Notes under the pieces: generated by a model | Databases searched by the model: none | The model's input: only the letters and a program-made list of their open reading frames with translations | Told to the model about the DNA's origin: nothing | Source: an uncultured Nitrososphaerota archaeon | Lineage (GTDB): Archaea > Thermoproteota > Methanomethylicia > Nezhaarchaeales > B40-G2 | Assembly (NCBI GenBank): GCA_964626365.1 | Contig: CAZVDL010000002.1 | Coordinates: forward strand, 19,966-83,965 | Direction of reading: 5' to 3' | Length of the DNA: 64,000 nucleotides | Position numbers and translations under genes: made by a program | Shown here: one piece after another, positions 22,022-63,983 of the stretch | How positions within the stretch are numbered: position 1 is the first letter of the stretch | Layout: each line of letters starts with the position of its first letter

Positions 22022-23216
22022 CGACATAATCTCCTGGTCACTGAGAAGCCTAAGGGAGCAACGTATTAGGGCGGCACTGGCCATAATGGGGGTCGCCATA
22101 GGAGCCATGCTGCTTATAGCAGTGTTATCTCAGAGCGAGGGTATAACGAGGGCCATTAAGGGGGAGCTTGAAACCCTCGGGGCGAGCACTATAATCCTGA
22201 GGCCTGAAGGCAACGCAGCGACGCTGGATGATTCCGACGTCAACATGATCAGGAACATAGGGTACGTCAAGACCGTGGCCCCTTTAACCATGGTTAACGC
22301 CAGGGTCTACGGCGCAGGCGGCTACGTCGAGTGCATGGTGGTAGGGGTAAAACCTTCCCAACTAGGCGAGGTCTTAAAGGGAGTAAAGGTCGCTGAGGGC
22401 CGCCTTCCAAGCGATGTGGCTGGGGAGGCCGTTGTAGGCTACGACGTAGCTTACCTCGAGGGAAGGTCTACCCCCTTCGTTGAGCTGGGACGAGAGGTTA
22501 TGGTGGAGTATAAGGTCGAAGACAAGGTCTACAGGTATAGGCTAACCGTGGTAGGCATACTCGAGAAGACAGGGGCCTCGCTGCTCTCAGGTACAGCCTT
22601 CGCCGCTGATAACACGATTTACGTGTCGCTTGAAACCATGAGCATCATGCTCGGCAGACACGACTACGACTTAATAAGCGTTGATGTCGTCGGCCCGGAA
22701 TACGTCGACGTAGTCGTAGCCAACCTAAAAGCCTACTATGGAGGCAGCGTAAAGATTATCAACACCAAGAAGATACTTGAGACCACCAACAACATACTCA
22801 ACAGCCTAACAGCCTTCAGGACCGCCATATCCATGGTCTCCCTCATAGTAGCCTCCCTAGGCGTAGCCAACGTAATGATAATGTCCGTCATGGAGAGAAC
22901 CAGGGAAATAGGAGTCCTAAAAGCCTTAGGCTACACCAACAAGGCCGTCATGACCCTCTTCCTATCCGAGGCGCTAATGATAGGCGTCATAGGAGCAGCC
23001 GTAGGCATAACCCTAGGCATACTAATCTCCTACACAAACATACTAGGACACCTAACCACCAAAGGAGCCCTAGAGATAGCCTTCCATCCAATAATAACCC
23101 CCCAACACATAACCCTAGCCCTAATCTTCTCCATCCTCACAAGCACCCTAGCAGGAATATATCCAGCCCACCGAGCAGCCAAACTAGAACCAGCAAAAGC
23201 CCTAAAATACGAGTAA
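22005..23216 (+). CDS. ABC transporter permease, FtsX/MacB-type (4 TM with large extracellular loop)
   Basis: Its topology and C-terminal FtsX-like TM bundle are those of this family. It overlaps the upstream gene. Confidence 0.8.
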   Translation: MNLRPDDIISWSLRSLREQRIRAALAIMGVAIGAMLLIAVLSQSEGITRAIKGELETLGASTIILRPEGNAATLDDSDVNMIRNIGYVKTVAPLTMVNARVYGAGGYVECMVVGVKPSQLGEVLKGVKVAEGRLPSDVAGEAVVGYDVAYLEGRSTPFVELGREVMVEYKVEDKVYRYRLTVVGILEKTGASLLSGTAFAADNTIYVSLETMSIMLGRHDYDLISVDVVGPEYVDVVVANLKAYYGGSVKIINTKKILETTNNILNSLTAFRTAISMVSLIVASLGVANVMIMSVMERTREIGVLKALGYTNKAVMTLFLSEALMIGVIGAAVGITLGILISYTNILGHLTTKGALEIAFHPIITPQHITLALIFSILTSTLAGIYPAHRAAKLEPAKALKYE

Positions 23217-23270
23217 CCATAAACCAAAACCCGCAACCCTAAAAACCCCCCAGAATAAAACCCCAATCGA

Positions 23271-23343
23271 AGCCGGGTGGTGTAGCGGCCAAGCATCACG
23301 GGCTCTGGCCCCGTGGACGGAGGTTCAAATCCTCCCCCGGCTA
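23271..23343 (+). tRNA. tRNA-Gln (anticodon CUG), no intron
   Basis: The acceptor is AGCCGGG/CCCGGCU with the A1:U72 typical of archaeal tRNA-Gln. The anticodon arm is ACGGG-CUCUGGC-CCCGU and the T-arm is GGAGG-UUCAAAU-CCUCC. Confidence 0.8.
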
Positions 23344-23425
23344 TAATTAAATACCTAAATTTTACTGTAATTTAAATCATCACTTTCTCTTCTTCAAACT
23401 CTGAGGACCTGTTTTTAACTCTCTT

Positions 23426-24115
23426 CTATTCTCCTAGAAGGATCTCCCTAATTTTCTCGCCCAGCTTTATTTCCTCTCTGGTGATTAAGGAGACCGTGAG
23501 TAATCCGTCTTCTATTGTATAATCTTGAACGACTAAATCCTCAGGTATTAGTATACTCAACACGGTATTGTTGAAGACGTTTAACAATCTATGAGTTAGG
23601 TCTTTAATTACCTCCTCAAGTTCAAGGACGTTTAAGGAAAGGTATACGTCGTAAACTACATCTTCCCAAGTGCTCCTCCAATAAGCTTTAATGACTCCTC
23701 CAAAGATCATTATATCATCGGGGCCCTTAACCTTGTCTCTAAGCTCTTCGGGTAAGATGTCCATGGTCTTATGGTAAAGTTCTTCAACCACTCTCCTTAG
23801 ATGCTCTTTCATCTGCTTCAGAGGTACTAGATTACCAGGGAGTGATGGTACCTCCTTGAAGCCTTCGCGAACTCTATAATCTATTATTACTGCATCACTG
23901 AAAACGTCGTATAACTTTCCGTAAGCTTTATGGAACTTTGAGGGCTCCCTTAAATGGAAGGCTGCAAAGGGCATAGGGTAAGGTTCCTTAATAATCTTTA
24001 ATTGAAGCCCTACGATAGCGCTACCCTTGTCCTTTATAATCTTAATGACCCTATGGCTGATCCTTAGTGCCACGTCTTCCCATTCATCTAAGTAGATACC
24101 TGGTTTACTGCTCAA
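23426..24115 (-). CDS. Hypothetical protein in low-GC islet
   Basis: A 229-aa ORF with no recognisable motif and ~40 % GC against the ~53 % background. Confidence 0.35.
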   Translation of the reverse strand: MSSKPGIYLDEWEDVALRISHRVIKIIKDKGSAIVGLQLKIIKEPYPMPFAAFHLREPSKFHKAYGKLYDVFSDAVIIDYRVREGFKEVPSLPGNLVPLKQMKEHLRRVVEELYHKTMDILPEELRDKVKGPDDIMIFGGVIKAYWRSTWEDVVYDVYLSLNVLELEEVIKDLTHRLLNVFNNTVLSILIPEDLVVQDYTIEDGLLTVSLITREEIKLGEKIREILLGE

Positions 24116-25010
24116 ACCGCTCCCTCCTCATCCTTTCAATTATGTCCCTTAATTTTCGAGCTTTACTTGGGCTTCTAAATCCTATTTTCTCGTAAAACTT
24201 CATTATACTATCGATCGAGTTAATACGTAGCTCATACTCTAAACTTTCACCAAACTCTCCTCTACTCCTTAATGGACCATAAAGCTTAGCCTTTATCCCT
24301 AGCTCCTCTAACATGTCACGCACCATCATGAGCCCTTTTACGTTTACTGATTTAGCATAGATAGTGGCATATGTGTGTCTTCTCTTTTGATATGAACTGA
24401 CGCCTCCATCACCGTCAAAGTAACCTTGGAGCCATGCACACTTTCCCTTTTCGTCAAGGTACTCTATTGGAGGTCTCCAATTACGTCGCCCAATCTCAGC
24501 GCCATACTTTAGTAGATCCTCTAAGATATCACGTCCATAAACCGTGAACTCAGTATAGTGACCTTTTCCTTTATCTCCGCGATATCTAGTACTTATCTTC
24601 ACACCAAATATTTCACGTATAACCCTTATAAACTCCTGATAGGCATCAGAGCCGTTGTGGAGTTGAACTCTATATCTACCCACTTCTTTTCTCGCTGAGC
24701 CGTTTGCGCATAGTAGTCCATGTAGATAAGCTCGGTCTATGCTATATAGCGGCCTATAACCTGAGGCTCTAACCTCGAGTATCATTCCTCTACCCATGTC
24801 TAATAAGGCTCTATTACCGTTGTCAATAACTAGCTCCTTGTACTCTCCAATCTTCCTACTATCTTCATAGAGCACGTAACTCTCTCCTTGCCTCGTTATC
24901 CTATAAGGGCCTACTCTAAAGACTTCCTCCTCAACATGGGATGATATTTCCTGCTCCTCTCCCTGTCTGAAGCGATCCTTGACCTGCCTTATTCTGTCAC
25001 CTGAACCCAA
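24105..25010 (-). CDS. Free-standing LAGLIDADG-type homing endonuclease-like protein (two LAGLIDADG-like motifs)
   Basis: The motifs are YLHGLLCANGSA and AWLQGYFDGDGGV. The spacing of ~95 aa fits a double-motif LAGLIDADG enzyme. GC is low. Confidence 0.55.
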   Translation of the reverse strand: MGSGDRIRQVKDRFRQGEEQEISSHVEEEVFRVGPYRITRQGESYVLYEDSRKIGEYKELVIDNGNRALLDMGRGMILEVRASGYRPLYSIDRAYLHGLLCANGSARKEVGRYRVQLHNGSDAYQEFIRVIREIFGVKISTRYRGDKGKGHYTEFTVYGRDILEDLLKYGAEIGRRNWRPPIEYLDEKGKCAWLQGYFDGDGGVSSYQKRRHTYATIYAKSVNVKGLMMVRDMLEELGIKAKLYGPLRSRGEFGESLEYELRINSIDSIMKFYEKIGFRSPSKARKLRDIIERMRRERFEQ

Positions 25011-26107
25011 GTTTTCTGGTTCCTCCTTCGCTGTGGAGGGCTTGTAGGTAGGTTAGGTTGTGTAGGGCTATGGCCTTGACGTTGTTTACCCTTATGTAGG
25101 TTATCTTGTTCCTCCTTTATTTCCTGGCAGGCTGGGCAGTTGCATGGGCATTCGTCGCAGTATAGGTGGTCGTCTAGGATGTAGTGTATGATTGGCTGGG
25201 TTCCTTGGTAGCAGGCTCGTTTCTGGGCGTTTATGAACCATGATAGGCTGGCGTGGGGGTATTCAGTGGCCCAGGTGTAGGGCCTTCCGTAGATGATGAG
25301 CTGGTAGCGTCCTCCGACGTAGTCTTCTAGGGCCTCTAAGGCGTAGGCTAGGAACTCCTTGAAGAGTCCGTCTCGCCAGAGCTCCCTGCTGGGGAGGGCG
25401 TACTTGGTTACGCTTAGCTGGCTTAGGGTCTTGACGCAGTACCTGACCTGTTCCCTGTTGGCGCCTTTAATTAGCCCTATGAGCTCGGCGTCAAGCTTAG
25501 CTAGCTCGGAGGTCATTTTAAGCGACCTTAGCAGGGACCTCCACGAGTATAGGCGAGGGTCGTCGATGTAGGTCTCTGAGTCAGGGTTGAAGAAGGCGTC
25601 TGGCTCTAAGCTCTTCAGGTAGCGCTGGTAGTCCTCTAAGCTTAGCCTAGCCATGGCCTCGTCGGGCATAACCGTGGACACTATGGTTTGGCCGTCAAGG
25701 TTTAGGTAGCCCCGTAGGCCCTCCGCCTCGGCTTGAGCAGAGAGCTCAGGGCTGACCATTAGGTCGTGGAGCTTAACTATAACTGTCCTTGGCTCAGCGA
25801 CCCACCTCCAGAACCAAGATCTCCGATCCCCGGCCTTAATGATCGGTATGAAGCGTGGAGTCTTCTTAAGCCTCTGCCTAGCCTTAGCTGTGGGTAGAGG
25901 TATGTCTAGCTTAACGCTTCTTGCGTCCACCTTTCTCGGGCACACCGAGGTGTAAATGCAGCCAGCGGCATTGATCCCTGTGTACCTCTTGCCTTTAAAA
26001 CAGGCTAGGACAAGGCATCCTCGGTTGTCGCAGCCTGAGCAGAGGGGGCCGTGGAGAGGGCACGACAAGCAGCTCCTACCGCATAGCCCTGCTTCGACCA
26101 TACTCAC
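24989..26107 (-). CDS. Cys-rich hypothetical protein (N-terminal CGRSCLSCPLHGPLCSGCDNRGC, C-terminal CDECPCNCPAC)
   Basis: A long ORF with host-like GC, and a low-complexity K/Q/P-rich tail where it runs into the low-GC segment. Confidence 0.4.
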   Translation of the reverse strand: MSMVEAGLCGRSCLSCPLHGPLCSGCDNRGCLVLACFKGKRYTGINAAGCIYTSVCPRKVDARSVKLDIPLPTAKARQRLKKTPRFIPIIKAGDRRSWFWRWVAEPRTVIVKLHDLMVSPELSAQAEAEGLRGYLNLDGQTIVSTVMPDEAMARLSLEDYQRYLKSLEPDAFFNPDSETYIDDPRLYSWRSLLRSLKMTSELAKLDAELIGLIKGANREQVRYCVKTLSQLSVTKYALPSRELWRDGLFKEFLAYALEALEDYVGGRYQLIIYGRPYTWATEYPHASLSWFINAQKRACYQGTQPIIHYILDDHLYCDECPCNCPACQEIKEEQDNLHKGKQRQGHSPTQPNLPTSPPQRRRNQKTWVQVTE

Positions 26108-26400
26108 CTACGTTTTTCTGGTTTTCCTTTAAACGGATCTCCGCTTCGATTAAATCCGGGGGCGTCTACCTACACGCTGTGTCCCTACCTGATTATTTGA
26201 GCTACGATACCCTCAAGGAGGCTTTAAAGGAGCTTAGGGTGCCCTTAGTGGACTTAATCTTAAGGCAAGACCTCTCCTTCTCCGAGGAATAAGCTGTGGT
26301 GAGAGATAGGCTTGTCCTTGGCTATTTTAGTGGAGAGGGTTAGCCCGCATAGTGAACTTAGAGGTGACCCCTCTCACCTTACCTAGGGCAGGGCGGAGCG

Positions 26401-26869
26401 GTGTTGGAGGTTGAGGCTGGGACAGGCTTCTTTACGGCTAGGGTCGTGGACGCGTTAAAGAGGCTCGGCGTTGAGGCGACGATGTACGCCTTAGACGCCT
26501 CGCCAGCCATGTTAAGAGCCCTGGTTGAGAGACTGCTCAGCGTGACCTCTATTTTAGGGGCGGCTGAGGATATACGAGGGAGCCTAGCTTACGCCAGGCG
26601 CTTTATCGACGTCCCCGACGAGTTTAACGCGGTCCTCCATCCTGCTGCTACATCACTGCCTGGAGGTGGAGCTGGTCTTTAGCAGCGTTAGGGAGGTGCT
26701 GGCGCCTAATGGAGCCGCCTCCCTCATAGACCTTTGTAGGCACGGCTTTGAGGTGCTCAGGGGGGAGATGGGCGACGTACACCTGGAGTTTGATTTAGGC
26801 TACGTCAAGGAGGCCGCTAGCAGGTATTTCAGCCATCGCCTACCCGCTGCGCTTAAAGGCGTGGATTAA
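26401..26869 (+). pseudogene. Frameshifted/truncated class I SAM-dependent methyltransferase
   Basis: MTase motif I LEVEAGTGFF sits in ORF 26401..26682. The continuation lies in a different frame (26666..26869). The total is only ~160 aa, well short of a full MTase. Confidence 0.45.
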
Positions 26870-26968
26870 TGCGGGGGGTGGGATTTGAACCCACGCCGGC
26901 CTTCGCCAACGGATACCCCAAGCCTGTTCTTGAGTCCGCCCCCTTGGACCTGGCTCGGGAACCCCCGC
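26870..26968 (-). tRNA. tRNA-Leu (anticodon CAA) with canonical ~14-nt intron after position 37 and long variable arm
   Basis: The reverse complement gives GCGGGGG...GCGGA-CUCAAG[intron]A-UCCGU, a 14-nt variable arm, GUGGG-UUCAAAU-CCCAC, CCCCCGC and discriminator A. Confidence 0.7.
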
Positions 26969-28384: not shown

Positions 28385-28475
28385 GGCGGCCGTGGTCTAG
28401 CCTGGTCCAGGACACAGAGCGCTGAGCGTGTAGGCCTTCCACGCCTGTTACCCGGGTTCGAATCCCGGCGGCCGC
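28385..28475 (+). tRNA. tRNA-Gly (anticodon UCC) with a 16-nt non-canonical intron inside the 5' strand of the anticodon stem
   Basis: The exons give GCGGCCG UG GUCU AGCCUGGUCCA GGAC A CAG[AGCGCUGAGCGUGUAG]GC CUUCCAC GCCUG UUAC CCGGG UUCGAAU CCCGG CGGCCGC A. The acceptor and T-arm are typical of archaeal tRNA-Gly. Confidence 0.7.
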
Positions 28476-37736: not shown

Positions 37737-38441
37737 ATGCTTAACTGCAAAGAGGTCATAGCCTGTAAGGCCCTAGCCGACGATGCTAGAAGGGCTATAC
37801 TTGAATTATTGTTCTGCTCTGGACCCTTAAGCATCGATGAGATTGCAAGAAGTACCGGGTTGAGGAGGGTTACTGTTCAGTATCATCTCAGGATACTGGA
37901 GCAAGCAGGGCTAGTAAGGCCTATGCTTGAGGTTAAGTCGACGCCAGGAAGACCAAGGAAATTGTATGAAGTTACTAAAGAGTACTTAAATCTAAGCTTT
38001 CCTAAAAGACAGTATGAGCTCCTTCTCAAGCTCCTCATGAATAGCGTAGTGAAAAAGCGTGGCTACGACGAGCTCGTGTCCTTAATGGAGGCTGCTGGAA
38101 GGGAGCTTGGTCAAAACATACTATTTAAGGTTAAATTAAACCATAACATAACTAAATGGGATATTGACACCTTCTGCAAGTACATATTACCTGAGCTAAG
38201 AGAATTAGGCTTTAGTCCCTTAGTGACTGGTGACTGTGTTAATGAGGTAGTAGTCAAATTAACTAACTGCATTTTCAGAGAATTAATAGCTGAGTACTCT
38301 GAAGCACTATGCGTTTGGCTAAGGGCTCTTGTTTACTCTTTAATGGAACCCTTTAAAGACTTTGAAATTAAATTAGGAAAAAGCGGTGAGACCTCGGAGT
38401 TTGAGGACTGCTTAACGATTATAAAGGCCAAGGCCAAATGA
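37737..38441 (+). CDS. ArsR-family HTH transcriptional regulator with C-terminal extension
   Basis: Its N-terminal winged HTH is LSIDEIARSTGLRRVTVQYHLRILEQAGLV. It lies between the Hdr cluster and the molybdoenzyme cluster. Confidence 0.55.
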   Translation: MLNCKEVIACKALADDARRAILELLFCSGPLSIDEIARSTGLRRVTVQYHLRILEQAGLVRPMLEVKSTPGRPRKLYEVTKEYLNLSFPKRQYELLLKLLMNSVVKKRGYDELVSLMEAAGRELGQNILFKVKLNHNITKWDIDTFCKYILPELRELGFSPLVTGDCVNEVVVKLTNCIFRELIAEYSEALCVWLRALVYSLMEPFKDFEIKLGKSGETSEFEDCLTIIKAKAK

Positions 38442-43729: not shown

Positions 43730-44377
43730 ATGAACTCTCCATCAATCTTCCTAACTCTATACGAATTCCTCTCAGCCTTCTTCCATTATCCACGGAGGAG
43801 GCTTGTTAAGTTATTGAGGGAGGGGTTTATTGAGGAGTTAGAGGATCGCGTAAAATCACTAACCGATTTTCCTGACGAATATAAGAAGGGTTTTTCCCTG
43901 ATTAAGGAGTATGTAGAGTCTACTAGGGAAAGAAGTCTTGAAGACGTACATAGGGAATTGGCAGTTGAGTATACCAGGCTTTTCATAAACGCCTTTCCCA
44001 TGGTCCCCTGTCCCCCATACGAGTCATTCTACGTTAACGGTGGTCTTTTGGCGCAACGGTCTGCTGCGAAGGTTCTAGAAATCTATGCTAAGGTGGGATA
44101 CCGTTTAAGGGACAAGTTTAAGGATCTACCAGATCACATTGCTGTTGAATTAGAGTTCATGTCTATACTTCATAGGATGAAGCTTAAACACGAACGTAAA
44201 GAAGAACTCAACGAGATCAAGCATTTATTCCTCAAGGAACATCTACTTAAGTGGGCGCCGTCCTTCTGCGACAACATTGAGAGAAACGCTAAGCTCACCT
44301 TCTATAAAGGACTATCGTACATATTAAGGGGCCTTTTGACCATGGAAGCTAAGAATTTAATGGAGTGTTCTTCTTGA
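43730..44377 (+). CDS. TorD/DmsD-family redox-enzyme maturation chaperone
   Basis: Its ~215 aa size, its position immediately after the catalytic subunit, and TorD-like helical sequence support the call. Confidence 0.55.
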   Translation: MNSPSIFLTLYEFLSAFFHYPRRRLVKLLREGFIEELEDRVKSLTDFPDEYKKGFSLIKEYVESTRERSLEDVHRELAVEYTRLFINAFPMVPCPPYESFYVNGGLLAQRSAAKVLEIYAKVGYRLRDKFKDLPDHIAVELEFMSILHRMKLKHERKEELNEIKHLFLKEHLLKWAPSFCDNIERNAKLTFYKGLSYILRGLLTMEAKNLMECSS

Positions 44378-44430
44378 CAGTTGATGATTTTTCAGGTGAA
44401 CCCAAGTTCACACACGATCCTCCCCCTTTA

Positions 44431-45066
44431 ATGAATGAAAAAACATTAATAAGTAGGGATAGATTGAAGGGGATTAAATATAGAGATCTTGTTCTATTGC
44501 GAAGTATAAAGGAGATCAAGGAGGCCTCATTAAAGCTAAACCTCCCTAGCGAAGTAATTAAAGAAGCTATTGAATGTTTAAATAAGGCCTTAGATCTTGG
44601 CTTAACAAGAGATCTAGGACATATTTGTCTTAAGGCTTCGTGCCTATACTTAGCGGCGCGTCTATTCAACGTACCCTTGACTTTAGACCGCGTATTAGCT
44701 AACTTTAAATGTTGTTGTAAGAGACCTTATAGAGCTCTCTTGAAATTAACGAGAGAGCTTAAATTTAAATTGCAGCCTTTAAAACCCGAGGCGCTATTAA
44801 CTAAGGTCATTTATGAGCTTAACTTGCCTGCTGAGCTTGAGGATAAAGCGTTCCAAGAAATTAGGAGACTCAAACGCGTTTTGAGAGGCAAAAGCCCAAA
44901 GACCATAACCGCGGTTGCTATCGTTAAAGCTGCGCGTGAATTGGGGCTTAGCTTGGTTGAACGTAAGGTAGCAGAAACTATTGGTATAACGCCCACAACG
45001 CTGCGGGCAGCTAAGAAGACGTTGATGGACAGGGAGAAGGAAAGTTACGTAGAGACTATTGATTAA
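44431..45066 (+). CDS. TFB-like protein consisting only of the cyclin-repeat core (no Zn-ribbon/B-reader)
   Basis: It has two cyclin-like repeats with the TFIIB-repeat signature (..LGLTRDLGHICLKASCLYLAARLFNVPLTLDRV.. and ..ITAVAIVKAARELGLSLVERKVAETIGITPTTLRAAKK). The ORF track starts at GTG 44365, but an in-frame ATG at 44431 is the more likely start. Confidence 0.5.
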   Translation: MNEKTLISRDRLKGIKYRDLVLLRSIKEIKEASLKLNLPSEVIKEAIECLNKALDLGLTRDLGHICLKASCLYLAARLFNVPLTLDRVLANFKCCCKRPYRALLKLTRELKFKLQPLKPEALLTKVIYELNLPAELEDKAFQEIRRLKRVLRGKSPKTITAVAIVKAARELGLSLVERKVAETIGITPTTLRAAKKTLMDREKESYVETID

Positions 45067-52857: not shown

Positions 52858-52969
52858 GCCGGGGTCGCCTAGCCTGGTCTAGGGCGCCGGACTCATAATC
52901 AGATGAGGCTGAGGCCAGGCGCCTGCATGGGGTATCCGGTCATCGCGGGTTCGAATCCCGCCCCCGGCA
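52858..52969 (+). tRNA. tRNA-Met (anticodon CAU, elongator-type; tRNA-Ile2 not excluded) with ~36-nt canonical intron
   Basis: The sequence reads GCCGGGG UC GCCU AGCCUGGUCUA GGGC G CCGGA CUCAUA[intron]A UCCGG UCAUC GCGGG UUCGAAU CCCGC CCCCGGC A. Confidence 0.75.
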
Positions 52970-58519: not shown

Positions 58520-59770
58520 TTATTTATCTCGCTTTTTATAAGTTTGACTTTTTCTTAACCTTAAATCGACTCGTTCAGGTAGGTTAAGATCTTCATATTT
58601 ATATGAGCCTAGAATGTTCAATGATATTGAGGAAAGCACGGCGAGCAGGATCACCATGATGACGATAAACGAATACAACTCTCTTGTTATGACTTCTAGA
58701 GCTAGGGCAAGAGATAGTATGGCCAGCTCTACGCCACCTTTACATAGCTGCCCCATGGTTAGCACTCCAGGTTTTCCTCTTAAAGCTAGGATTCTTGAAC
58801 CAAGGTAACCTCCTAGCAGCTTTCCCGCTAAGATGATTAGCGCGAATGAAACGATGGTTAGGAAGTTGAGTGATAAAAAGTCAAGTGTCACATATAGCCC
58901 TATCCCAGCAAAGAAAATAGGTATGAATATCCCGTAAGCAAAACCCTTAAGTTGTTGTACTGACCTATTTATGATGAAGTCGTCTCTCTTCCTTGAGAGC
59001 ATGAAGCCTAAGATTAAAGCGCCAAAGATACCATGCAAACCGGCCATGACGGCAGCCGCGGAGAATAATAGGATTAAGGTTATTAACGCGGCGAAGGAGG
59101 CCTCCTTCACTTTAAACTTGTTTTCAACCTCTCTAATGATTAATGGTGCAACATGGTAACCAATAAACGCCGCTAACACGAAGAACGCCACTATCTTGAC
59201 AGGTAGGAGGTAGTACCCATTGGCATCTGGGTATAGCATTAACTCCAACGTTATGCTAGCCACTATAAGGCCTAATACCTCACTCAAAATAGCTATGTTA
59301 ATCAAGTTCGCTCCTTCGACGGTGTTCAATAAGTTCAGATCGGTTAAACATCTAACAACAACTCCTATACTTGTAAGCGCCAATACGCTAGCTACTAAGA
59401 CGCTGACAGCCCATTCTTCACCCAAGTAAAATGGAAGAAAGTAGCAGTACATGATAAATGGCACGAGAAACGAAGTAAGGGCAGCTAGAACGTTTTTGGG
59501 GTGTAAGGCCCTGGCTACATTCTTTAAGTCTACTTCCTCAAAGCCTACTAAGAATAGTAATAAATAAATACCTAACGCTATGAAAAGTTTGATTTCAGGA
59601 TTTACGTATAGGATTCCCAGTATCGCTGGGCCTAATATTATTCCAGCTACTATTTCCCCCACGATGACTGGTAGCTTGAACCTAATGAAGACTTCGCCCA
59701 AGACTCTAGAAGCTATTACTAGTATAGCGATTTGAACAAGCGCTAATTCGAAGAAAACTTTCTCGCTCAC
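58520..59770 (-). CDS. Monovalent cation:proton antiporter (CPA1/CPA2 Na+/H+ exchanger family)
   Basis: It has 11-12 TM helices with the typical CPA fold, at 416 aa. Confidence 0.75.
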   Translation of the reverse strand: MSEKVFFELALVQIAILVIASRVLGEVFIRFKLPVIVGEIVAGIILGPAILGILYVNPEIKLFIALGIYLLLFLVGFEEVDLKNVARALHPKNVLAALTSFLVPFIMYCYFLPFYLGEEWAVSVLVASVLALTSIGVVVRCLTDLNLLNTVEGANLINIAILSEVLGLIVASITLELMLYPDANGYYLLPVKIVAFFVLAAFIGYHVAPLIIREVENKFKVKEASFAALITLILLFSAAAVMAGLHGIFGALILGFMLSRKRDDFIINRSVQQLKGFAYGIFIPIFFAGIGLYVTLDFLSLNFLTIVSFALIILAGKLLGGYLGSRILALRGKPGVLTMGQLCKGGVELAILSLALALEVITRELYSFIVIMVILLAVLSSISLNILGSYKYEDLNLPERVDLRLRKSQTYKKRDK

Positions 59771-60251: not shown

Positions 60252-61067
60252 TCACCTCTCAATTTCCACCTTCAATCCAGCAGCATTCCTCCTATATCTT
60301 CCAAGCTCAGCTATCCTAGTCAAAACCTCTAATGGGAAAACAGGTCCATCTCTGCAAACCCTCAATCCAACTGGATCTAAAATGCATGAACCGCAAATTC
60401 CAATAGCGCACTTAACATATCTTTCAAGCAGTGCTTGCATGTGAACCCCATACTTAACAGCCAATTCAACTACTTTGACGATCATGAGCTCAGGCCCACA
60501 TACATACATTTCATCAAACTTCTCCCTAGACAAAATGCGCTCAACTAGTTCGGATATATAGCCCTTAAAGCCCATGGAGCCATCATCAGTTGAAATGTAA
60601 AGCCTAATTCTACCCTCATCCCTCAGCCTCTCCAGCTCTCCTAGGAAAAGCAGTTCATCAGCACTCCTAGCACCATTAACCACGGCCACCGAGCACCCCT
60701 CATCAACGAGCACCTTAACTAGAGGCATTAGAGGAGCCATGCCAGTTCCACCACCAACAACGAGGGCTCTCCCATCAACTACCCTAAATCCGTTACCATA
60801 AGGCCCCCTCACACCAATGAAGTCCCCAACCCCAAGTCTATGAAGCGCCCTAGTAGCATCACCAACAGCATGAACTGTAAACGATATTCTGGGGGGATCA
60901 ATTTTGGATAGGCCCATTGGAATCTCATCTACACCTGGAATCCAAACCATAATGAACTGGCCAGGCCTAGCCCTCCCAGCAATACTCGGACACTTAACCG
61001 TAAACGTCTTCCTATCCCTAGCCTCATCAACAACTCTCTCAATCCTACAGATAACTGGCCTATGCAT
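60252..61067 (-). CDS. pyrK: Dihydroorotate dehydrogenase electron-transfer subunit (PyrK; FAD/NAD-binding + 2Fe-2S)
   Basis: It has a ferredoxin-reductase-type fold and a C-terminal CAIGICGSC cluster. It is upstream of and co-oriented with pyrD. I place the start at an internal Met. Confidence 0.8.
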   Translation of the reverse strand: MHRPVICRIERVVDEARDRKTFTVKCPSIAGRARPGQFIMVWIPGVDEIPMGLSKIDPPRISFTVHAVGDATRALHRLGVGDFIGVRGPYGNGFRVVDGRALVVGGGTGMAPLMPLVKVLVDEGCSVAVVNGARSADELLFLGELERLRDEGRIRLYISTDDGSMGFKGYISELVERILSREKFDEMYVCGPELMIVKVVELAVKYGVHMQALLERYVKCAIGICGSCILDPVGLRVCRDGPVFPLEVLTRIAELGRYRRNAAGLKVEIER

Positions 61068-61071
61068 GCAT

Positions 61072-61995
61072 CTACCTCCCATGAGCATAGCCTATGAGTT
61101 CATCTAAGCTGCCAAACCCCTTCCTCTCCATAAACTCCACGACCCCTTCAATTAGCTCTCTAAAAATATTCAAGTCCCTAACTGCAATTCCAGAAGCCAC
61201 CTGAACGGCGCTTGCACCAGCCATGAAGAACTCCACTGCATCACTCCAAGAAACAATTCCCCCAACACCAATCACGGGTATGCTGAGCTCCCTATAAAGC
61301 TCATAAACGCATCTGACGGCTATGGGCTTAATAGCCCTACCACTCAATCCACCAAAAACATTGGATAGCACTGGCCTCCCAAGCTCAATATCGATCACCA
61401 AAGCCCTCAAAGTATTGATCGCAGTAACACCATCAGCACCAGCTCGCTCAGCAGCCCTACCAATCTCAACTATATTCGTGACCTCAGCTGAAAGCTTAGC
61501 AAATACTGGAACAGAAACAGTGCTCTTAACAGTGCTCACAACCTCATAGGTTTTCTCTGGATCCTGAGAGAACTGAAGCAATCCACCGGCATGAGGGCAT
61601 GAGAGGTTGAGCTCAATAGCATCAGCACCAGCCTCCTCCAATCTATGAGCAACCAAAGCATACTCATCTGCCGTAGAGCCGAAAACTGAAGCTATGACAG
61701 GTACACCACCCTCCTTAGCAATCCGCAGCTCCTCAATAAATGCATCAACACCCGGATTCGGCAACCCCATCGCATTAACAAAGCCGCAGTCAACCTCCAC
61801 AATTGTAGGATTCAAGTAACCCTCCCTCGGCCTCAACCCAATAGACTTAGTCACAACCGCACCTGCACCAGCCATTGCAACCCTCTTCAAAATTGAGCCA
61901 GCATTACCGAGAACACCGGAAGCAAGCATGAATGGATTTCTAAGCCTCAAAGAAGCAATCTTGGCAGTCAAATCTACGCTCAACCTTGCCCTCAC
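61072..61995 (-). CDS. pyrD: Dihydroorotate dehydrogenase catalytic subunit (class 1B)
   Basis: It has an FMN-binding TIM barrel with the active-site Cys region (NLSCPHAG). Confidence 0.85.
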   Translation of the reverse strand: MRARLSVDLTAKIASLRLRNPFMLASGVLGNAGSILKRVAMAGAGAVVTKSIGLRPREGYLNPTIVEVDCGFVNAMGLPNPGVDAFIEELRIAKEGGVPVIASVFGSTADEYALVAHRLEEAGADAIELNLSCPHAGGLLQFSQDPEKTYEVVSTVKSTVSVPVFAKLSAEVTNIVEIGRAAERAGADGVTAINTLRALVIDIELGRPVLSNVFGGLSGRAIKPIAVRCVYELYRELSIPVIGVGGIVSWSDAVEFFMAGASAVQVASGIAVRDLNIFRELIEGVVEFMERKGFGSLDELIGYAHGR

Positions 61996-62046
61996 AAAAA
62001 TACTGTATAAAAGCTTTAAAGGGTTGCTGAGAATATCCTCAACGGT

Positions 62047-63285
62047 GTGGATATGAGCTCAATGAGAAATTCAGATGAGAGCAAAGTATACCTAGTCGAC
62101 ACGGCATTCGCAGTCTTCGCCTGCAGTGAGGATGGATCAATCATCGACTACGAGAAGCTGCCCACTGAGGTTGATGAAGCCGCATCAAAGCTACTAAGCC
62201 TCGAGCGGGGAGAGCTCATCGAGGAAATGGAAAAGCTCTGCGGGAAAATGGCGTCTAAAGGAGTGAAGCTATTCATAGTTGAAGACGAATCCCTAGCCAC
62301 AGCTCTCAGAGAGAAGCTCGGAGTCCAAGTATCAGTTGAACAGGCAAACCCTGCTGCAAGGAAAATTAGAGCTCAGCTAGAAGAGCTAGTAGTCAAGCTT
62401 CAACTAAGAAGCTCAACCGTTGAAGCCCACGATTTCATATACTCCGTTTCAATGGCCATGACGAGGAGGAAGCTGAGAGAAGCAGCTGAAAAAAGAGATT
62501 TACTAGTAGCACAAGCAGTAAATGCAATAGACGATCTAAATAAGTCAATAAACCTGCTAGTTTCAAGGCTGAGGGAATGGTATTCAGTGCATTTTCCAGA
62601 GCTAAACGACATGGTTAGAGACCACGAAGTATACGTCAAGCTAGTATCATCAATAGGTCTGAGAGGCAACTACACAGCTGAGGCACTAACCAAGCTAGAC
62701 ATGCCGAAAGGGAAGGCCAAGAAAATAGCTAGAGCAGCAGAAAACTCAATTGGAGCAGACATAGCGGAGTTCGACGTCAAGCCAATGATGGCCCTATCAG
62801 CCATAATAGAGAAAATGTATGAGCTCAGAGGGCTTATAGAAGACTACATAGACCAGACAATGGATGAAGTAGCACCGAACATTAAGGGACTAGTAGGCTC
62901 ACTCATAGGTGCAAGACTAATAGCCCTAGCAGGAGGCCTAGATGAACTCGCAAAGCTCCCAGCAAGCACTATACAGGTACTTGGAGCAGAAAAAGCCCTA
63001 TTCAGAGCCCTGAGAACTGGAGCCAAACCACCAAAGCATGGAGTGATATTCCAGTGCCCAGAAGTCCATAGAGCACCAAGATGGCAGAGAGGTAAAATTG
63101 CCAGAGCTCTCGCAGGAAAGCTTGCCATAGCAGCTAGAGTAGATGCTTTCACCGGAACATACATAGTAGACGAGCTTAAAGAGGACTTGAAGAAGAGGAT
63201 CGAAGAAATAAAGAGGATATATGCCAAGCCACCTAAGAGAGCTGAAGTGAGGGTCTCAAGGAGAAGGCGTAGAAAGAGGAGGTGA
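62047..63285 (+). CDS. nop5: C/D-box snoRNP protein Nop5 (Nop56/58)
   Basis: It has Nop and NOSIC domains and a KR-rich C-terminal tail. It lies directly upstream of fibrillarin. Confidence 0.85.
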   Translation: MDMSSMRNSDESKVYLVDTAFAVFACSEDGSIIDYEKLPTEVDEAASKLLSLERGELIEEMEKLCGKMASKGVKLFIVEDESLATALREKLGVQVSVEQANPAARKIRAQLEELVVKLQLRSSTVEAHDFIYSVSMAMTRRKLREAAEKRDLLVAQAVNAIDDLNKSINLLVSRLREWYSVHFPELNDMVRDHEVYVKLVSSIGLRGNYTAEALTKLDMPKGKAKKIARAAENSIGADIAEFDVKPMMALSAIIEKMYELRGLIEDYIDQTMDEVAPNIKGLVGSLIGARLIALAGGLDELAKLPASTIQVLGAEKALFRALRTGAKPPKHGVIFQCPEVHRAPRWQRGKIARALAGKLAIAARVDAFTGTYIVDELKEDLKKRIEEIKRIYAKPPKRAEVRVSRRRRRKRR

Positions 63286-63290
63286 GCTAA

Positions 63291-63983
63291 ATGGCGAAAA
63301 TATATCCACATGAAAAGTTTGAGGGAGTCTACTGGATTGAACTCGAAGATGGATCCAAGAGGCTTGCAACAGTAAATCTAGCACCTGGATTCAAAGTGTA
63401 TGGCGAGCCCCTCATAAAGCATGAGGGAACCGAGTATCGAATGTGGAATGCCTATAGAAGCAAGCTGGCAGCAGCAATTCTAAAGGGAGTAGGCGAAGTA
63501 CCCATAAAGCCTGGATCAAAGATCCTATATTTAGGAGCTGCAACCGGAACAACTGCAAGCCATGTAAGCGACATAGTCGGCCCTAAAGGGAAAGTGTACT
63601 GCGTTGAATTCGCACCGAGAGTTGTCAGGGAGCTTATAACTGTCTGCGAGCACAGAAGGAACATGATACCAATACTAGCAGATGCAAGGCATCCAAACCT
63701 CTATAGAGCCCTAGTGCCAGAAGTAGATGTAATATACTGCGATGTAGCCCAGCCCGAGCAGGCAAAGCTCCTAGCAGATAACGCGGACATGTTCCTTAAG
63801 AGCGGTGGAGGAATAATGCTGGCAATAAAGGCTAGAAGCGTAGATGTAACCCTAGAGCCATCGGAAGTCTATAAGAGGGAAATGGACACCCTCAAGAAAA
63901 GGGGATTCGAAATAGTCAGCACAGTACACTTGGAACCATTCGACAAGGCACATGCAATGGTAGTAGCCAAGTTCGAGAAGTAG
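63291..63983 (+). CDS. flpA: Fibrillarin (rRNA/tRNA 2'-O-methyltransferase)
   Basis: It has a SAM-binding motif [17 protein letters not shown] and the conserved fibrillarin fold, at 230 aa. Confidence 0.9.

Follow-up and report, generated by a model that had tools for sequence, protein, structure and literature searches.

A three-gene cassette of a TGT-like protein and a LAGLIDADG endonuclease tied to tRNA genes in Thermoproteota and Brockarchaeota

The low-GC islet adjoining a tRNA-Gln gene in the 64-kb stretch of archaeal DNA analysed here (the window) belongs to a hitherto undescribed archaeal cassette and forms its nuclease half; in this cassette, a gene for a TGT-like protein is followed by a LAGLIDADG endonuclease gene and by a gene of about 220 codons. 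A genome scan recovered about 58 loci of this cassette in MAGs of Thermoproteota and Brockarchaeota. As an explanation of the whole, we propose, with confidence that is about even, a unit with homing-type spread whose nuclease would be under the control of the TGT-like protein.

The islet beside tRNA-Gln and its genes

The tRNA-Gln gene and the cassette are convergent, 3' end facing 3' end, and the features of the locus, in window coordinates, are the following:

23271..23343, plus strand: tRNA-Gln(CTG) (ARAGORN; Rfam RF00005, 55.7 bits)
23344..23425: AT-rich spacer of 82 bp in the sequence, from the tRNA 3' end to the stop codon of the third gene
23426..24115, minus strand: third gene, 229 aa (ORF)
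24105..25010, minus strand: LAGLIDADG endonuclease, 301 aa (ORF; PF14528)
24405..24431, minus strand: LAGLIDADG motif 2, LQGYFDGDG, with catalytic Asp201 retained
24699..24725, minus strand: LAGLIDADG motif 1, LHGLLCANG, aligned with ISDG of I-DmoI (family alignment)
24957..25010, minus strand: N-terminal glycine tag, M-G-S-G-D-R-I-R-Q-V-K-D-R-F-R-Q-G-E (partner ORF alignment)
24989..26107, minus strand: TGT-fold partner gene, 372 aa (ORF; gene callers place the start at 26101)
25104..25104, minus strand: single extra A, shifting the frame ahead of the zinc-motif His (alignment with L001-L005)
25127..25150, minus strand: C-x-C-x2-C of the TGT zinc motif, aligned to ArcTGT C279/C281/C284
26030..26083, minus strand: Cys-rich N-terminal motifs, C-x3-C-x2-C-P ... 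L-C-x-G-C (alignments)

The sequence-only reading had described a low-GC islet 3' of tRNA-Gln with two co-oriented minus-strand genes, and this description holds. Positions 23344..25010 have 41.4% GC, while the whole window averages 50.6% and the 5 kb on their flanks lie at 52-57%, and a sliding GC profile places them lowest among all 1667-bp windows of the 64 kb (z = -2.6). The overall GC is 43% in the LAGLIDADG gene, 41.2% in the 229-aa gene and 55% in the TGT-like gene, and the corresponding GC3 values are 0.399, 0.450 and 0.651, with neighbouring genes at 0.60-0.70; these GC3 figures locate the drop at synonymous sites. The LAGLIDADG and third-gene pair is compositionally foreign to its neighbours, the TGT-like gene being host-like, and a related module at another locus (L075) has 39.5% GC. 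Other stretches with 42-43% GC are present elsewhere in the window; no further cassette copies were found at other low-GC stretches or at other tRNAs of the window.

The 301-aa ORF had been read as a free-standing double-motif LAGLIDADG gene, and the profile searches bear this out: it matches PF14528 in two stretches (E = 6.5e-18), both of the motifs originally quoted were found, and the family profile covers the whole I-DmoI chain (E = 1.6e-9). The protein is an I-DmoI-like monomeric double-motif LAGLIDADG endonuclease, which carries an N-terminal extension of ~95 aa and is 25-29% identical to its homologs in other cassettes. Both catalytic acids are retained in 30 of the 31 aligned full-length family members, the exception being the window protein itself, where Asn103 takes the place of the catalytic Asp/Glu of motif 1; this endonuclease may be a nickase or inactive. 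Two weak LAGLIDADG matches (P0002 and P0003) were set aside as phage-type free-standing genes of a replication module, unrelated to the cassette.

The 229-aa protein is, as first described, without a recognisable domain, since it has no match in Pfam, NCBIfam, PHROG or PADLOC. It has only three relatives, all distant, among 1.84 billion representatives, and one of these (P0029, 39% identity) is preceded, with a short overlap, by a LAGLIDADG homolog (55% identity). The third genes of the cassette family encode ~217-233 aa, have neither a Pfam nor a PP-loop match, and occupy the same position as the window gene. When the 229-aa protein was compared with this third-gene family (A3), hmmsearch gave 2.5 bits and hhalign was negative, both for the single sequence and for its own small family; we treat it only as the positional equivalent of the family third gene. 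Positional equivalence without detectable homology fits the rate hierarchy of the cassette genes, in which the third gene is fast-evolving. A single-sequence AlphaFold model of the protein (pLDDT 36.6) was uninterpretable. The idea of a split ancestral gene was rejected, since the C-terminal extension of a long TGT-like paralog is a fused metallophosphoesterase, unrelated to the third gene.

The upstream Cys-rich gene encodes what is, judging from its alignments, a TGT-fold protein closest to archaeosine TGT (ArcTGT), predicted to descend from this archaeosine tRNA-guanine transglycosylase. The TGT-type TIM-barrel fold is preceded by the Cys-rich N-terminus and followed by the zinc motif. The N-terminal Cys motifs belong to a conserved region of ~9 Cys, possibly a metal or Fe-S site. 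All four ligands of the zinc motif CxCxxC...H align in the family and in an intact allele (P0004), ArcTGT H307 corresponding to a His in the intact tail. From this His to the protein end, family members have ~20 residues.

The frameshift at 25104 deprives the window allele of the zinc-motif His. The extra A is also present in L004 and L005, and is absent from L001-L003: this 1-nt insertion is a population variant. Its deletion in silico restores the tail ...VKAIALHNLTYLQALHSEGGTRKLGFR up to the stop codon; the +1-frame tail matches the family HMM, and the intact reading frame stops at 24997, with an overlap of 14 nt with the endonuclease. Thus it is a single inserted nucleotide that gives the upstream gene its 22-nt overlap and its odd end, and not an endonuclease inserted into the tail of that gene, as had been suggested. 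Nor is the gene an accidental target, since a TGT-fold protein stands before a LAGLIDADG homolog in nearly all of the ~58 loci. Since its motif 1 has Asn103 and its gene 1 is a frameshift allele, the window copy of the cassette is probably weakened.

TGT and DpdA require three invariant active-site Asp, which serve as acid/base, in base recognition and as nucleophile (PMC10164549). In the TGT-like family, the base-recognition Asp (ArcTGT D130) is kept and the other two are absent, D95 aligning to an invariant Ser or a gap, and D249 to Ser/Ala (HMMER) or Leu/Ile (MAFFT). These correspondences come from sequence alignments and from a structure model whose C-terminal third is of low confidence; according to them, the protein would retain the zinc site and, with Asp and Lys, the base pocket, and would have lost the general acid/base and nucleophile Asp. 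It differs from ArcTGT not only in these two residues, but also in the replacement of Gln169 by an invariant Lys, in the absence of the C-terminal tRNA-binding domains (C1/C2/PUA), in the added ~9-Cys region, and in being encoded by a multi-copy gene paired with a nuclease gene.

Inheritance, tRNA linkage and exchange of the cassette

A LAGLIDADG homolog directly follows almost every TGT-like gene, with the third gene behind it. The cassette is multi-copy and vertically inherited at fixed sites: about 10 diverged copies, 55-83% identical to each other, are present in some genomes, orthologous cassettes have both flanks in common, and one and the same site may carry an intact copy in one case and a fragmented one in another. 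Purifying selection acts on all three genes, with dN/dS values of 0.09-0.38; pseudogenised copies are nonetheless frequent. The pairwise identities of the three genes correlate (r = 0.78-0.88), which points to co-evolution of the TGT-like gene with the LAGLIDADG homolog, and the distance from the stop of gene 1 to the start of gene 2 (-22..+17 nt, mode 0) indicates that both are translationally coupled. A read-through fusion with GGGS as its linker was considered and rejected, since all three stop codons are used and the gaps of -22 to +17 nt fall in different frames.

The cassette is strongly tied to tRNA genes. One lies at most 260 bp away from 23 of the 43 cassettes, compared with 0.85% of random segments (p≈2e-36). 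Permissive ARAGORN runs returned false tRNAs with 'introns' of 100-1600 nt, which were discarded. The first reading was therefore right to regard the position of the islet at a tRNA gene as meaningful, and tRNA-Gln is a neighbour of the kind typical for the family. The spacing may be as short as 4-17 bp, the tRNA may precede or follow the cassette and may point either way, many of these tRNAs have introns, and the cassette clades follow the tRNA class (Leu, Ala, Gly). About 40-47% of the cassettes have no detected tRNA neighbour.

Genes 2 and 3 are occasionally replaced as a block, as two mosaic pairs show in their alignments, by recombination between two conserved arms, one in the tRNA (its 3' half) and one at the 3' end of gene 1. 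The loci L029 and L043 are 97-100% identical over a tract that starts ~200 bp ahead of the TGT-like stop and runs ~50 nt into the 3' half of tRNA-Leu, and L015 and L019 display the inverse pattern; the former pair involves contig ends and may represent assembly chimeras, the latter lies on long contigs. Both were found by comparing identities gene by gene, a crude high-identity blastn screen having missed them. The exchanged LAGLIDADG and third-gene pair is exactly the window islet, and such a block replacement accounts for the abrupt change of GC and GC3 seen there.

Neither a pristine empty site nor a cleavage site or homing event was seen. The one module-less locus (L058), considered as a pristine empty target, turned out to be a deletion derivative, and an empty-site comparison in metagenomes through the flanking FtsX-type permease gave only matches of 22-32% identity, with no usable synteny.

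The glycine tag and the explanations weighed

The tag at the N-terminus of the endonuclease recurs throughout the partners, with the consensus MG[GS]G[ST]…Q…RF, with an acidic linker of variable sequence behind it. Among 46 partner ORFs, G2 is conserved in all 46, Q9 and R13 in 45 each, and G4 and F14 in 44 each. The same tag is carried by non-LAGLIDADG partners, several of which are proteins of 387-440 aa without an assigned family. The cassette thus has the Cap10-type pairing of a TGT-fold protein with a partner bearing an M-G-(G/S)-G-(G/S) N-terminal extension: the acceptor motif is M(G/S)G(G/S)GG in type IV CBASS (bioRxiv 10.1101/2025.04.06.647259) and MGTS in QatB (PMC13279940). Cap10 reads the base through D73/S74/D122/K154 and has D248 as its catalytic residue, D73 and D248 being required in CBASS (bioRxiv 10.1101/2025.04.06.647259). 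In the TGT-like family, the equivalents of the Cap10 Ser, Asp and Lys are invariant and those of D73 and D248 absent, a correspondence mapped only indirectly through ArcTGT, no direct sequence alignment of the family to Cap10 having been obtained.

There are further differences from these bacterial systems. Unlike Cap10-CdnD and QatB-QatC, the cassette is archaeal, and its TGT-fold protein would derive from ArcTGT and not be an ortholog of Cap10. Unlike Cap10-CdnD, it is tRNA-linked and multi-copy, and its partner is a LAGLIDADG nuclease or another protein of 387-440 aa, and not a CD-NTase or cyclic-nucleotide effector. A QueC-family writer (Cap9) is also missing, with no ORF containing the SGGxDS motif within ±6 kb of any cassette.

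In the explanation that we prefer, and to which we give about as much credence as doubt, the endonuclease would drive homing-type spread at tRNA-linked sites and the exchange of the module there. The TGT-like protein would not exchange bases, but would engage the exposed Gly2 tail of the endonuclease, possibly bearing a 7-deazaguanine-type adduct as in Cap10-CdnD of type IV CBASS, and thereby would control or target the nuclease. Several points count against it: a system that benefits its host would account for the strong purifying selection and the stable synteny no less well than a selfish element would, neither a cleavage site nor homing nor a pristine empty site was seen, a sizeable fraction of the cassettes has no detected tRNA neighbour, and both a QueC-like writer and the D73/D248 equivalents are lacking.

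A tentative possibility, which we hold with clearly less confidence, is a control by nucleobase-protein conjugation, where the ArcTGT-derived protein would bind the Met-processed Gly2 tail, or attach it in an ArcS-like, amine-to-preQ0 reaction, so that this tail may carry a 7-deazaguanine-type base. In its most radical version, the nuclease would become coupled to the guanine/preQ0 position of the neighbouring tRNA or of its gene, which would explain together the remodelled active site, the invariant tag on different effectors, and the tRNA linkage.

The agreement of the tag with both acceptor motifs, its presence on different effectors, the selection acting on all genes, and the match of the PADLOC 'TGT' model to 12 of the 21 members of the TGT-like family would all suit a non-mobile defence or toxin system similar to type IV CBASS, in which the TGT-like protein would keep the tagged nuclease inactive until a trigger arrives, the tRNA adjacency being an incidental hotspot. 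However, a hotspot fails to explain the 4-17-bp spacing, the correlation of clades with tRNA class, and the exchange tracts ending inside a tRNA, and the missing writer enzyme and frequent pseudogenisation speak against it as well; we regard this system as unlikely.

A pair similar to restriction-modification, with a DpdA-like insertion of 7-deazaguanine at the nuclease site protecting the host and the LAGLIDADG protein cutting unmodified DNA, appears quite improbable to us. The intact catalytic residues of the nuclease partner, the several diverged copies per genome, as in restriction-modification systems, and the metallophosphoesterase fused to the long paralog agree with it. On the other hand, two of the three invariant Asp on which TGT and DpdA depend (PMC10164549) are absent, PADLOC returned no DpdA match for the family, no DpdB-type ATPase was found among the examined neighbours of the TGT-like genes, and both the conserved tag and the tRNA adjacency are left unexplained.

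It is very unlikely that the cassettes encode dedicated factors for tRNA modification or maturation, that is, an ArcTGT paralog and a maturase-like LAGLIDADG protein serving the adjacent tRNA, even though the closest fold is that of a tRNA enzyme, the cassettes adjoin tRNA genes, and these tRNAs often bear introns. The TGT-like protein lacks the tRNA-binding domains and catalytic Asp of ArcTGT, copies can be dispensed with, as pseudogenes at syntenic sites show, and the GC3 is foreign. Moreover, the LAGLIDADG catalytic acids are conserved in the family, in contrast to maturases without nuclease activity, which do not keep them.

The earlier idea of a remnant of a virus or plasmid, integrated by an integrase at the 3' end of tRNA-Gln, is hardly credible: although the islet adjoins a tRNA 3' end and is clearly foreign in GC and GC3, a search of the 64 kb with up to 3 mismatches gave no direct repeat of tRNA-Gln or of a piece of it, the predicted att duplicate (nor any att-relevant repeat in 23150..26600 or tRNA-derived repeat in the spacer 23344..23425), the two islet genes and the upstream gene include no integrase or other element gene and form a cassette conserved in about 58 loci, the TGT-like family has no relatives on viral contigs, and family tRNA neighbours lie on either side and in either orientation.

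Known systems and significance

The cassette nuclease resembles I-DmoI and the archaeal monomeric LAGLIDADG enzymes in having two motifs per chain, with acids aligned to ISDG and VAEG, and both are crenarchaeal. Unlike I-DmoI, it is free-standing, outside an rRNA intron or intein, has an N-terminal region of ~95 aa with the invariant glycine tag, and is encoded after a TGT-fold gene and before a third gene, beside tRNA genes; the window copy also has Asn at the catalytic position of motif 1. T4 SegB is a free-standing phage homing endonuclease of the GIY-YIG family that acts near tRNA genes and co-converts flanking markers; SegB and tRNA genes are a subject of PMC13096335. The cassette shares with it a free-standing endonuclease gene beside tRNA genes and evidence of block exchange with flanking co-conversion, but is of the LAGLIDADG type, chromosomal and archaeal, and always includes two other conserved genes. 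In the 'fractured genes' presented in PMC2677866, a host gene is split by a free-standing endonuclease gene located between split-intein halves. As in that account, the endonuclease gene of the cassette lies between two co-oriented genes; unlike in it, the TGT-like protein ends right after the zinc motif and the third gene shows no relationship to the C-terminal portion of the long paralog. By eye, neither a Cys/Ser-initiated N-fragment nor a C-fragment of an intein was seen in the adjoining genes.

Until now, a glycine tag paired with a TGT-fold protein has been known only in bacterial type IV CBASS, QatABCD being an example of the tag by itself; if our explanation is true, this pairing would extend to Archaea and to nuclease effectors. 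Such cassettes could supply naturally regulated, thermostable endonucleases with long sites. The tRNA genes of these archaea would host a kind of resident cassette that has gone unnoticed, with up to about ten of them in a genome, which would bear on how tRNA genes evolve, on where MAG assemblies break, and on how 'hypothetical' genes are annotated. The free-standing LAGLIDADG endonucleases of Thermoproteota and Brockarchaeota would then not be lone selfish genes, but parts of a selected unit with a remodelled tRNA-modification enzyme.

The islet and its three-gene cassette

The stretch at 23344..25010, adjoining the 3' end of tRNA-Gln, represents the GC minimum among all 1667-bp windows of the 64-kb stretch (z = -2.6), with 41.4% GC against a window mean of 50.6% and 52-57% in the surrounding 5 kb; other stretches of 42-43% GC are present elsewhere in the window. 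The drop is located at synonymous sites: the two islet genes have GC3 values of 0.40 and 0.45, whereas the Cys-rich gene beside them reaches 0.65 and the neighbours of the latter 0.60-0.70. The genes concerned are:

23271..23343, plus strand, tRNA-Gln(CTG)
23426..24115, minus strand, 229-aa ORF, third gene
24105..25010, minus strand, 301-aa ORF, LAGLIDADG endonuclease
24989..26107, 372-aa Cys-rich ORF, tRNA-guanine transglycosylase (TGT)-like gene

The 301-aa protein matches PF14528 in two stretches (E = 6.5e-18) and the profile of its family matches the full I-DmoI chain (E = 1.6e-9), bearing out the low-GC islet with a free-standing, double-motif LAGLIDADG gene that the sequence-only reading had placed at tRNA-Gln. 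The 229-aa protein has no match in Pfam, NCBIfam, PHROGs or PADLOC. Further genes of low GC3 (0.40-0.49) lie at 37737..38438, 43730..45063, 58523..59770 (a polytopic membrane protein) and 60255..63980, none of them containing cassette-related sequence, and GC3 is generally lower in the second half of the window than in the first.

The islet comprises the second and third genes of a conserved cassette under selection, whose first gene encodes a remodelled TGT-fold protein. Behind distant TGT-like homologs, in unrelated genomic contexts, lie a LAGLIDADG_3 gene of ~300 aa and, after it, one of ~220-230 aa. Scanning a single genome from each species yielded 58 loci, and iterative HMM searches of their ORFs showed the following: almost every TGT-like gene has a LAGLIDADG homolog directly after it, and next comes a third gene of 217-233 aa belonging to a family of its own, which in one clade lies upstream on the opposite strand. 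All three genes have dN/dS values of 0.09-0.38 and their pairwise identities are correlated (r = 0.78-0.88), the TGT-like gene evolving slowest and the third gene fastest. Given this rate and the distance of the window from the family (34% TGT and 25-29% LAGLIDADG identity), one would not expect its third gene to be recognisable; the 229-aa protein shows no similarity to the third-gene family in profile comparisons. An exhaustive HMMER search found three relatives of it only, one of which (39% identity) again follows, with a short overlap, a LAGLIDADG gene 55% identical to that of the window, so that this gene pair is conserved too.

The cassette is also multi-copy and prone to decay, with about ten loci in the Brockarchaeota MAG GD2_1, seven each in two MAGs and six in a fourth, and many copies broken into fragments. 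Copies in one genome are only 55-83% identical, and are therefore old paralogs rather than recent transpositions. Orthologous cassettes of related genomes have common flanking genes on both sides, and intact and fragmented versions occur at one site (e.g., locus L047 versus L056/L069). The contigs of L029, L039, L017, L037, L051, L061 and L064 stop within or beside the TGT-like gene, which suggests that repeated cassettes break metagenome assemblies. One contig binned as the bacterium Fervidobacterium (L026, JBMFNR010000018.1, 2950 bp) carries a typical archaeal cassette with its adjoining tRNA, and is probably mis-binned.

A remodelled TGT fold and its glycine-tagged partner

MAGs of Thermoproteota and Brockarchaeota contain homologs of the TGT-like protein (30-38% identity); Pfam TGT is matched by 14 of 24, and the family profile matches the archaeosine tRNA-guanine transglycosylase ArcTGT (1iq8) with E = 1e-8. 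An AlphaFold model built from the intact allele and 20 homologs, with a core pLDDT of 80-95 and poor termini, has its best matches in bacterial TGT (16.9), QTRT2 (15.8), DpdA (15.5) and Cap10 (12.5), against about 11 or below for generic TIM barrels. The family keeps the zinc ligands (CxCxxC...H) and the base-recognition Asp (D130 of ArcTGT) without exception, whereas an invariant Lys takes the place of ArcTGT Gln169. In the alignment, no acidic residue stands opposite Asp95 (general acid/base) or Asp249 (nucleophile) of ArcTGT, the nucleophile position being set by the well-anchored SWFLEAK/SYALYAK segment. For TGT and DpdA, both residues have been described as invariant and essential (PMC10164549); the family has the TGT fold but, by its catalytic residues, falls outside these enzymes. 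Contrary to ArcTGT, it lacks the C-terminal domains and carries an extra N-terminal region in which about nine Cys are conserved (C-x3-C-x2-C-P ... C-x2-C ...). Long paralogs of 584-607 aa (L067:5965-7788, plus strand; L022:3828-5582, minus; L068:5878-7673, plus) have a fused calcineurin-like metallophosphoesterase domain (PF12850, 27.1 bits against a cutoff of 27), a second phosphoesterase- or nuclease-type partner for this fold; at L022 3828..8638 such a paralog, on the minus strand, lies side by side with a tRNA-Thr and a full cassette.

In the window, one extra A at 25104 shifts the frame of the TGT-like gene ahead of the zinc-motif His. It accounts for the low-complexity tail of the gene and for the 22-nt overlap with the endonuclease ORF described from the sequence, an overlap present in this allele and reduced to 14 nt without the insertion, where the gene ends ...AIALHNLTYLQALHSEGGTRKLGFR. 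Two independent assemblies (L004, L005) share the extra A, whereas three (L001-L003) lack it, and it is therefore probably a real population variant rather than a sequencing error.

The endonuclease family aligns with the ISDG and VAEG motifs of I-DmoI through GLIASDG or AEG (motif 1) and GFFSGDG (motif 2). Both catalytic acids are retained in all 30 other full-length members of the family alignment, so that the nuclease chemistry is maintained by selection, which speaks against a function purely as maturase or binder. Only the window protein departs from this, its motif 1 having Asn103, and Asn at this catalytic position would be expected to impair the cutting of one or both strands; together with the frameshift allele, this residue makes the window's own copy appear weakened. 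The only other weak relatives of this endonuclease, P0002 and P0003 (L076 and L077, 6001-6900), are free-standing LAGLIDADG genes with an HTH-like N-terminal region, located in a phage-like replication module (gyrase, DnaB, RecJ, Pol III alpha).

The partner ORFs, 46 in number, start with the consensus M-G-[GS]-G-[ST]-x-[VI]-x-Q-x3-R-F-x2-G-E (G2 in 46/46, Q9 and R13 in 45, G4 and F14 in 44), followed by a variable acidic linker; since the glycine codons vary, the tag is conserved at the protein level. The start codon of the partner adjoins the TGT-like stop or overlaps with it (gaps of -22 to +17 nt, most often 0), and each of the three stop codons occurs, which indicates coupling and not read-through. 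Unrelated proteins of 387-440 aa, with no Pfam match, follow TGT-like genes at L034:1657-2820, L021:2854-3567 and L041:7015-8337, and share the tag as MGAG(T/K)RV(K/R)Q...RF.

A comparable pairing of a TGT-fold protein with a glycine-tagged partner exists in type IV CBASS, where Cap10 binds the N-terminus of a CD-NTase that universally begins M(G/S)G(G/S)GG, whose Gly2 bears 7-amido-7-deazaguanine installed by the QueC-like Cap9, Cap10 reading the base with D73, S74, D122 and K154 (bioRxiv 10.1101/2025.04.06.647259); QatB has an analogous MGTS motif (PMC13279940). However, no QueC-like ORF (SGGxDS) was found within about 6 kb of any cassette, the D73 and D248 equivalents are absent, and the TGT-like protein is nearest to ArcTGT rather than to Cap10. 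Given these differences, the parallel is a mechanistic lead, not membership.

tRNA linkage and block exchange

Most cassettes have a tRNA gene (ARAGORN and Rfam) at a distance of a few bp to about 250 bp. The commonest layout is that of the window, with the tRNA convergent with the third gene and spacers of 4-17 bp; in others the tRNA lies upstream on the same strand or, in one clade, directly behind the LAGLIDADG gene. Of the 43 cassettes whose known sequence extends for 300 bp or more on both sides, 23 have a tRNA within 260 bp, against 0.85% of random 2.7-kb segments from the same loci (binomial p = 2e-36). This set covers at least 11 anticodons, with more over all loci, and cassette clades follow tRNA class (one clade each for tRNA-Leu isoacceptors, tRNA-Ala and tRNA-Gly(TCC)).

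Rfam identified intron-bearing tRNA genes missed or untyped by ARAGORN at 26870..26968 (minus), 52858..52969 (plus) and 28418..28468 (plus). The first, an apparent intron-containing tRNA-Leu(CAA), lies ~760 bp upstream of the cassette, whose region is therefore flanked by two tRNA genes. Two overlapping small plus-strand ORFs, 26401..26682 (weak SAM-methyltransferase match, Methyltransf_25, E = 9e-4) and 26666..26869, end 1 nt from the tRNA at 26870 and resemble the split remnant of a single gene.

The second and third genes form a compositionally foreign block that is occasionally exchanged. L029 and L043, which are not orthologous and come from two closely related genomes, share a tract of 97-100% identity that begins ~200 bp ahead of the TGT-like stop, spans both genes and ends ~50 nt inside the 3' half of the neighbouring tRNA; beyond it, identity in the TGT-like gene is 75-85% and the downstream sequences are unrelated. 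Each locus adjoins a different tRNA-Leu isoacceptor gene, the 3' halves of the two tRNA genes being identical. Since both loci touch contig ends, the tract may be an assembly chimera. The orthologous L015 and L019, on contigs of 54 kb and 87 kb, show the inverse pattern, with flanks and TGT-like gene 90-100% identical and the block 52-70%. From both patterns, the two genes are replaceable as a block between two conserved arms, the 3' end of the TGT-like gene and the 3' half of the tRNA; this block is exactly the low-GC islet of the window. Where the host is GC-richer, the GC content of the block is generally below that of the TGT-like gene and the flanks, and the sole relative of the window's block has 39.5% GC. 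The single locus without the block, L058, was rejected as a pristine target, being a deletion derivative.

Readings of the cassette

A non-mobile, CBASS-like defence module would leave the tRNA geometry unexplained. The missing catalytic Asp speak against a DpdA-like restriction-modification pair, and dedicated tRNA-maturation factors are disfavoured since the cassettes are dispensable, foreign in GC3 and conserved in their nuclease residues. The remnant of an integrase-type integrated element targeting the tRNA-Gln 3' end, one of the two origins put forward by the sequence-only reading, is essentially refuted: neither an att-type duplicate nor a partial direct repeat of this tRNA was found within the 64-kb window, there is no integrase among the three genes, and no relatives of the TGT-like gene were found on viral contigs.

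The feature itself is real; the other origin, a homing-endonuclease cassette at a tRNA locus, was partly correct and missed the larger three-gene unit. The literature searched contains no link of TGT or DpdA with LAGLIDADG and no account of this cassette; the known kinds are free-standing LAGLIDADG homing genes and TGT-fold/glycine-tag partner systems. On roughly even odds, we propose that the endonuclease would drive homing-type spread and exchange at tRNA-linked sites, and that the TGT-like protein would control or target it by way of its Gly2 tail.
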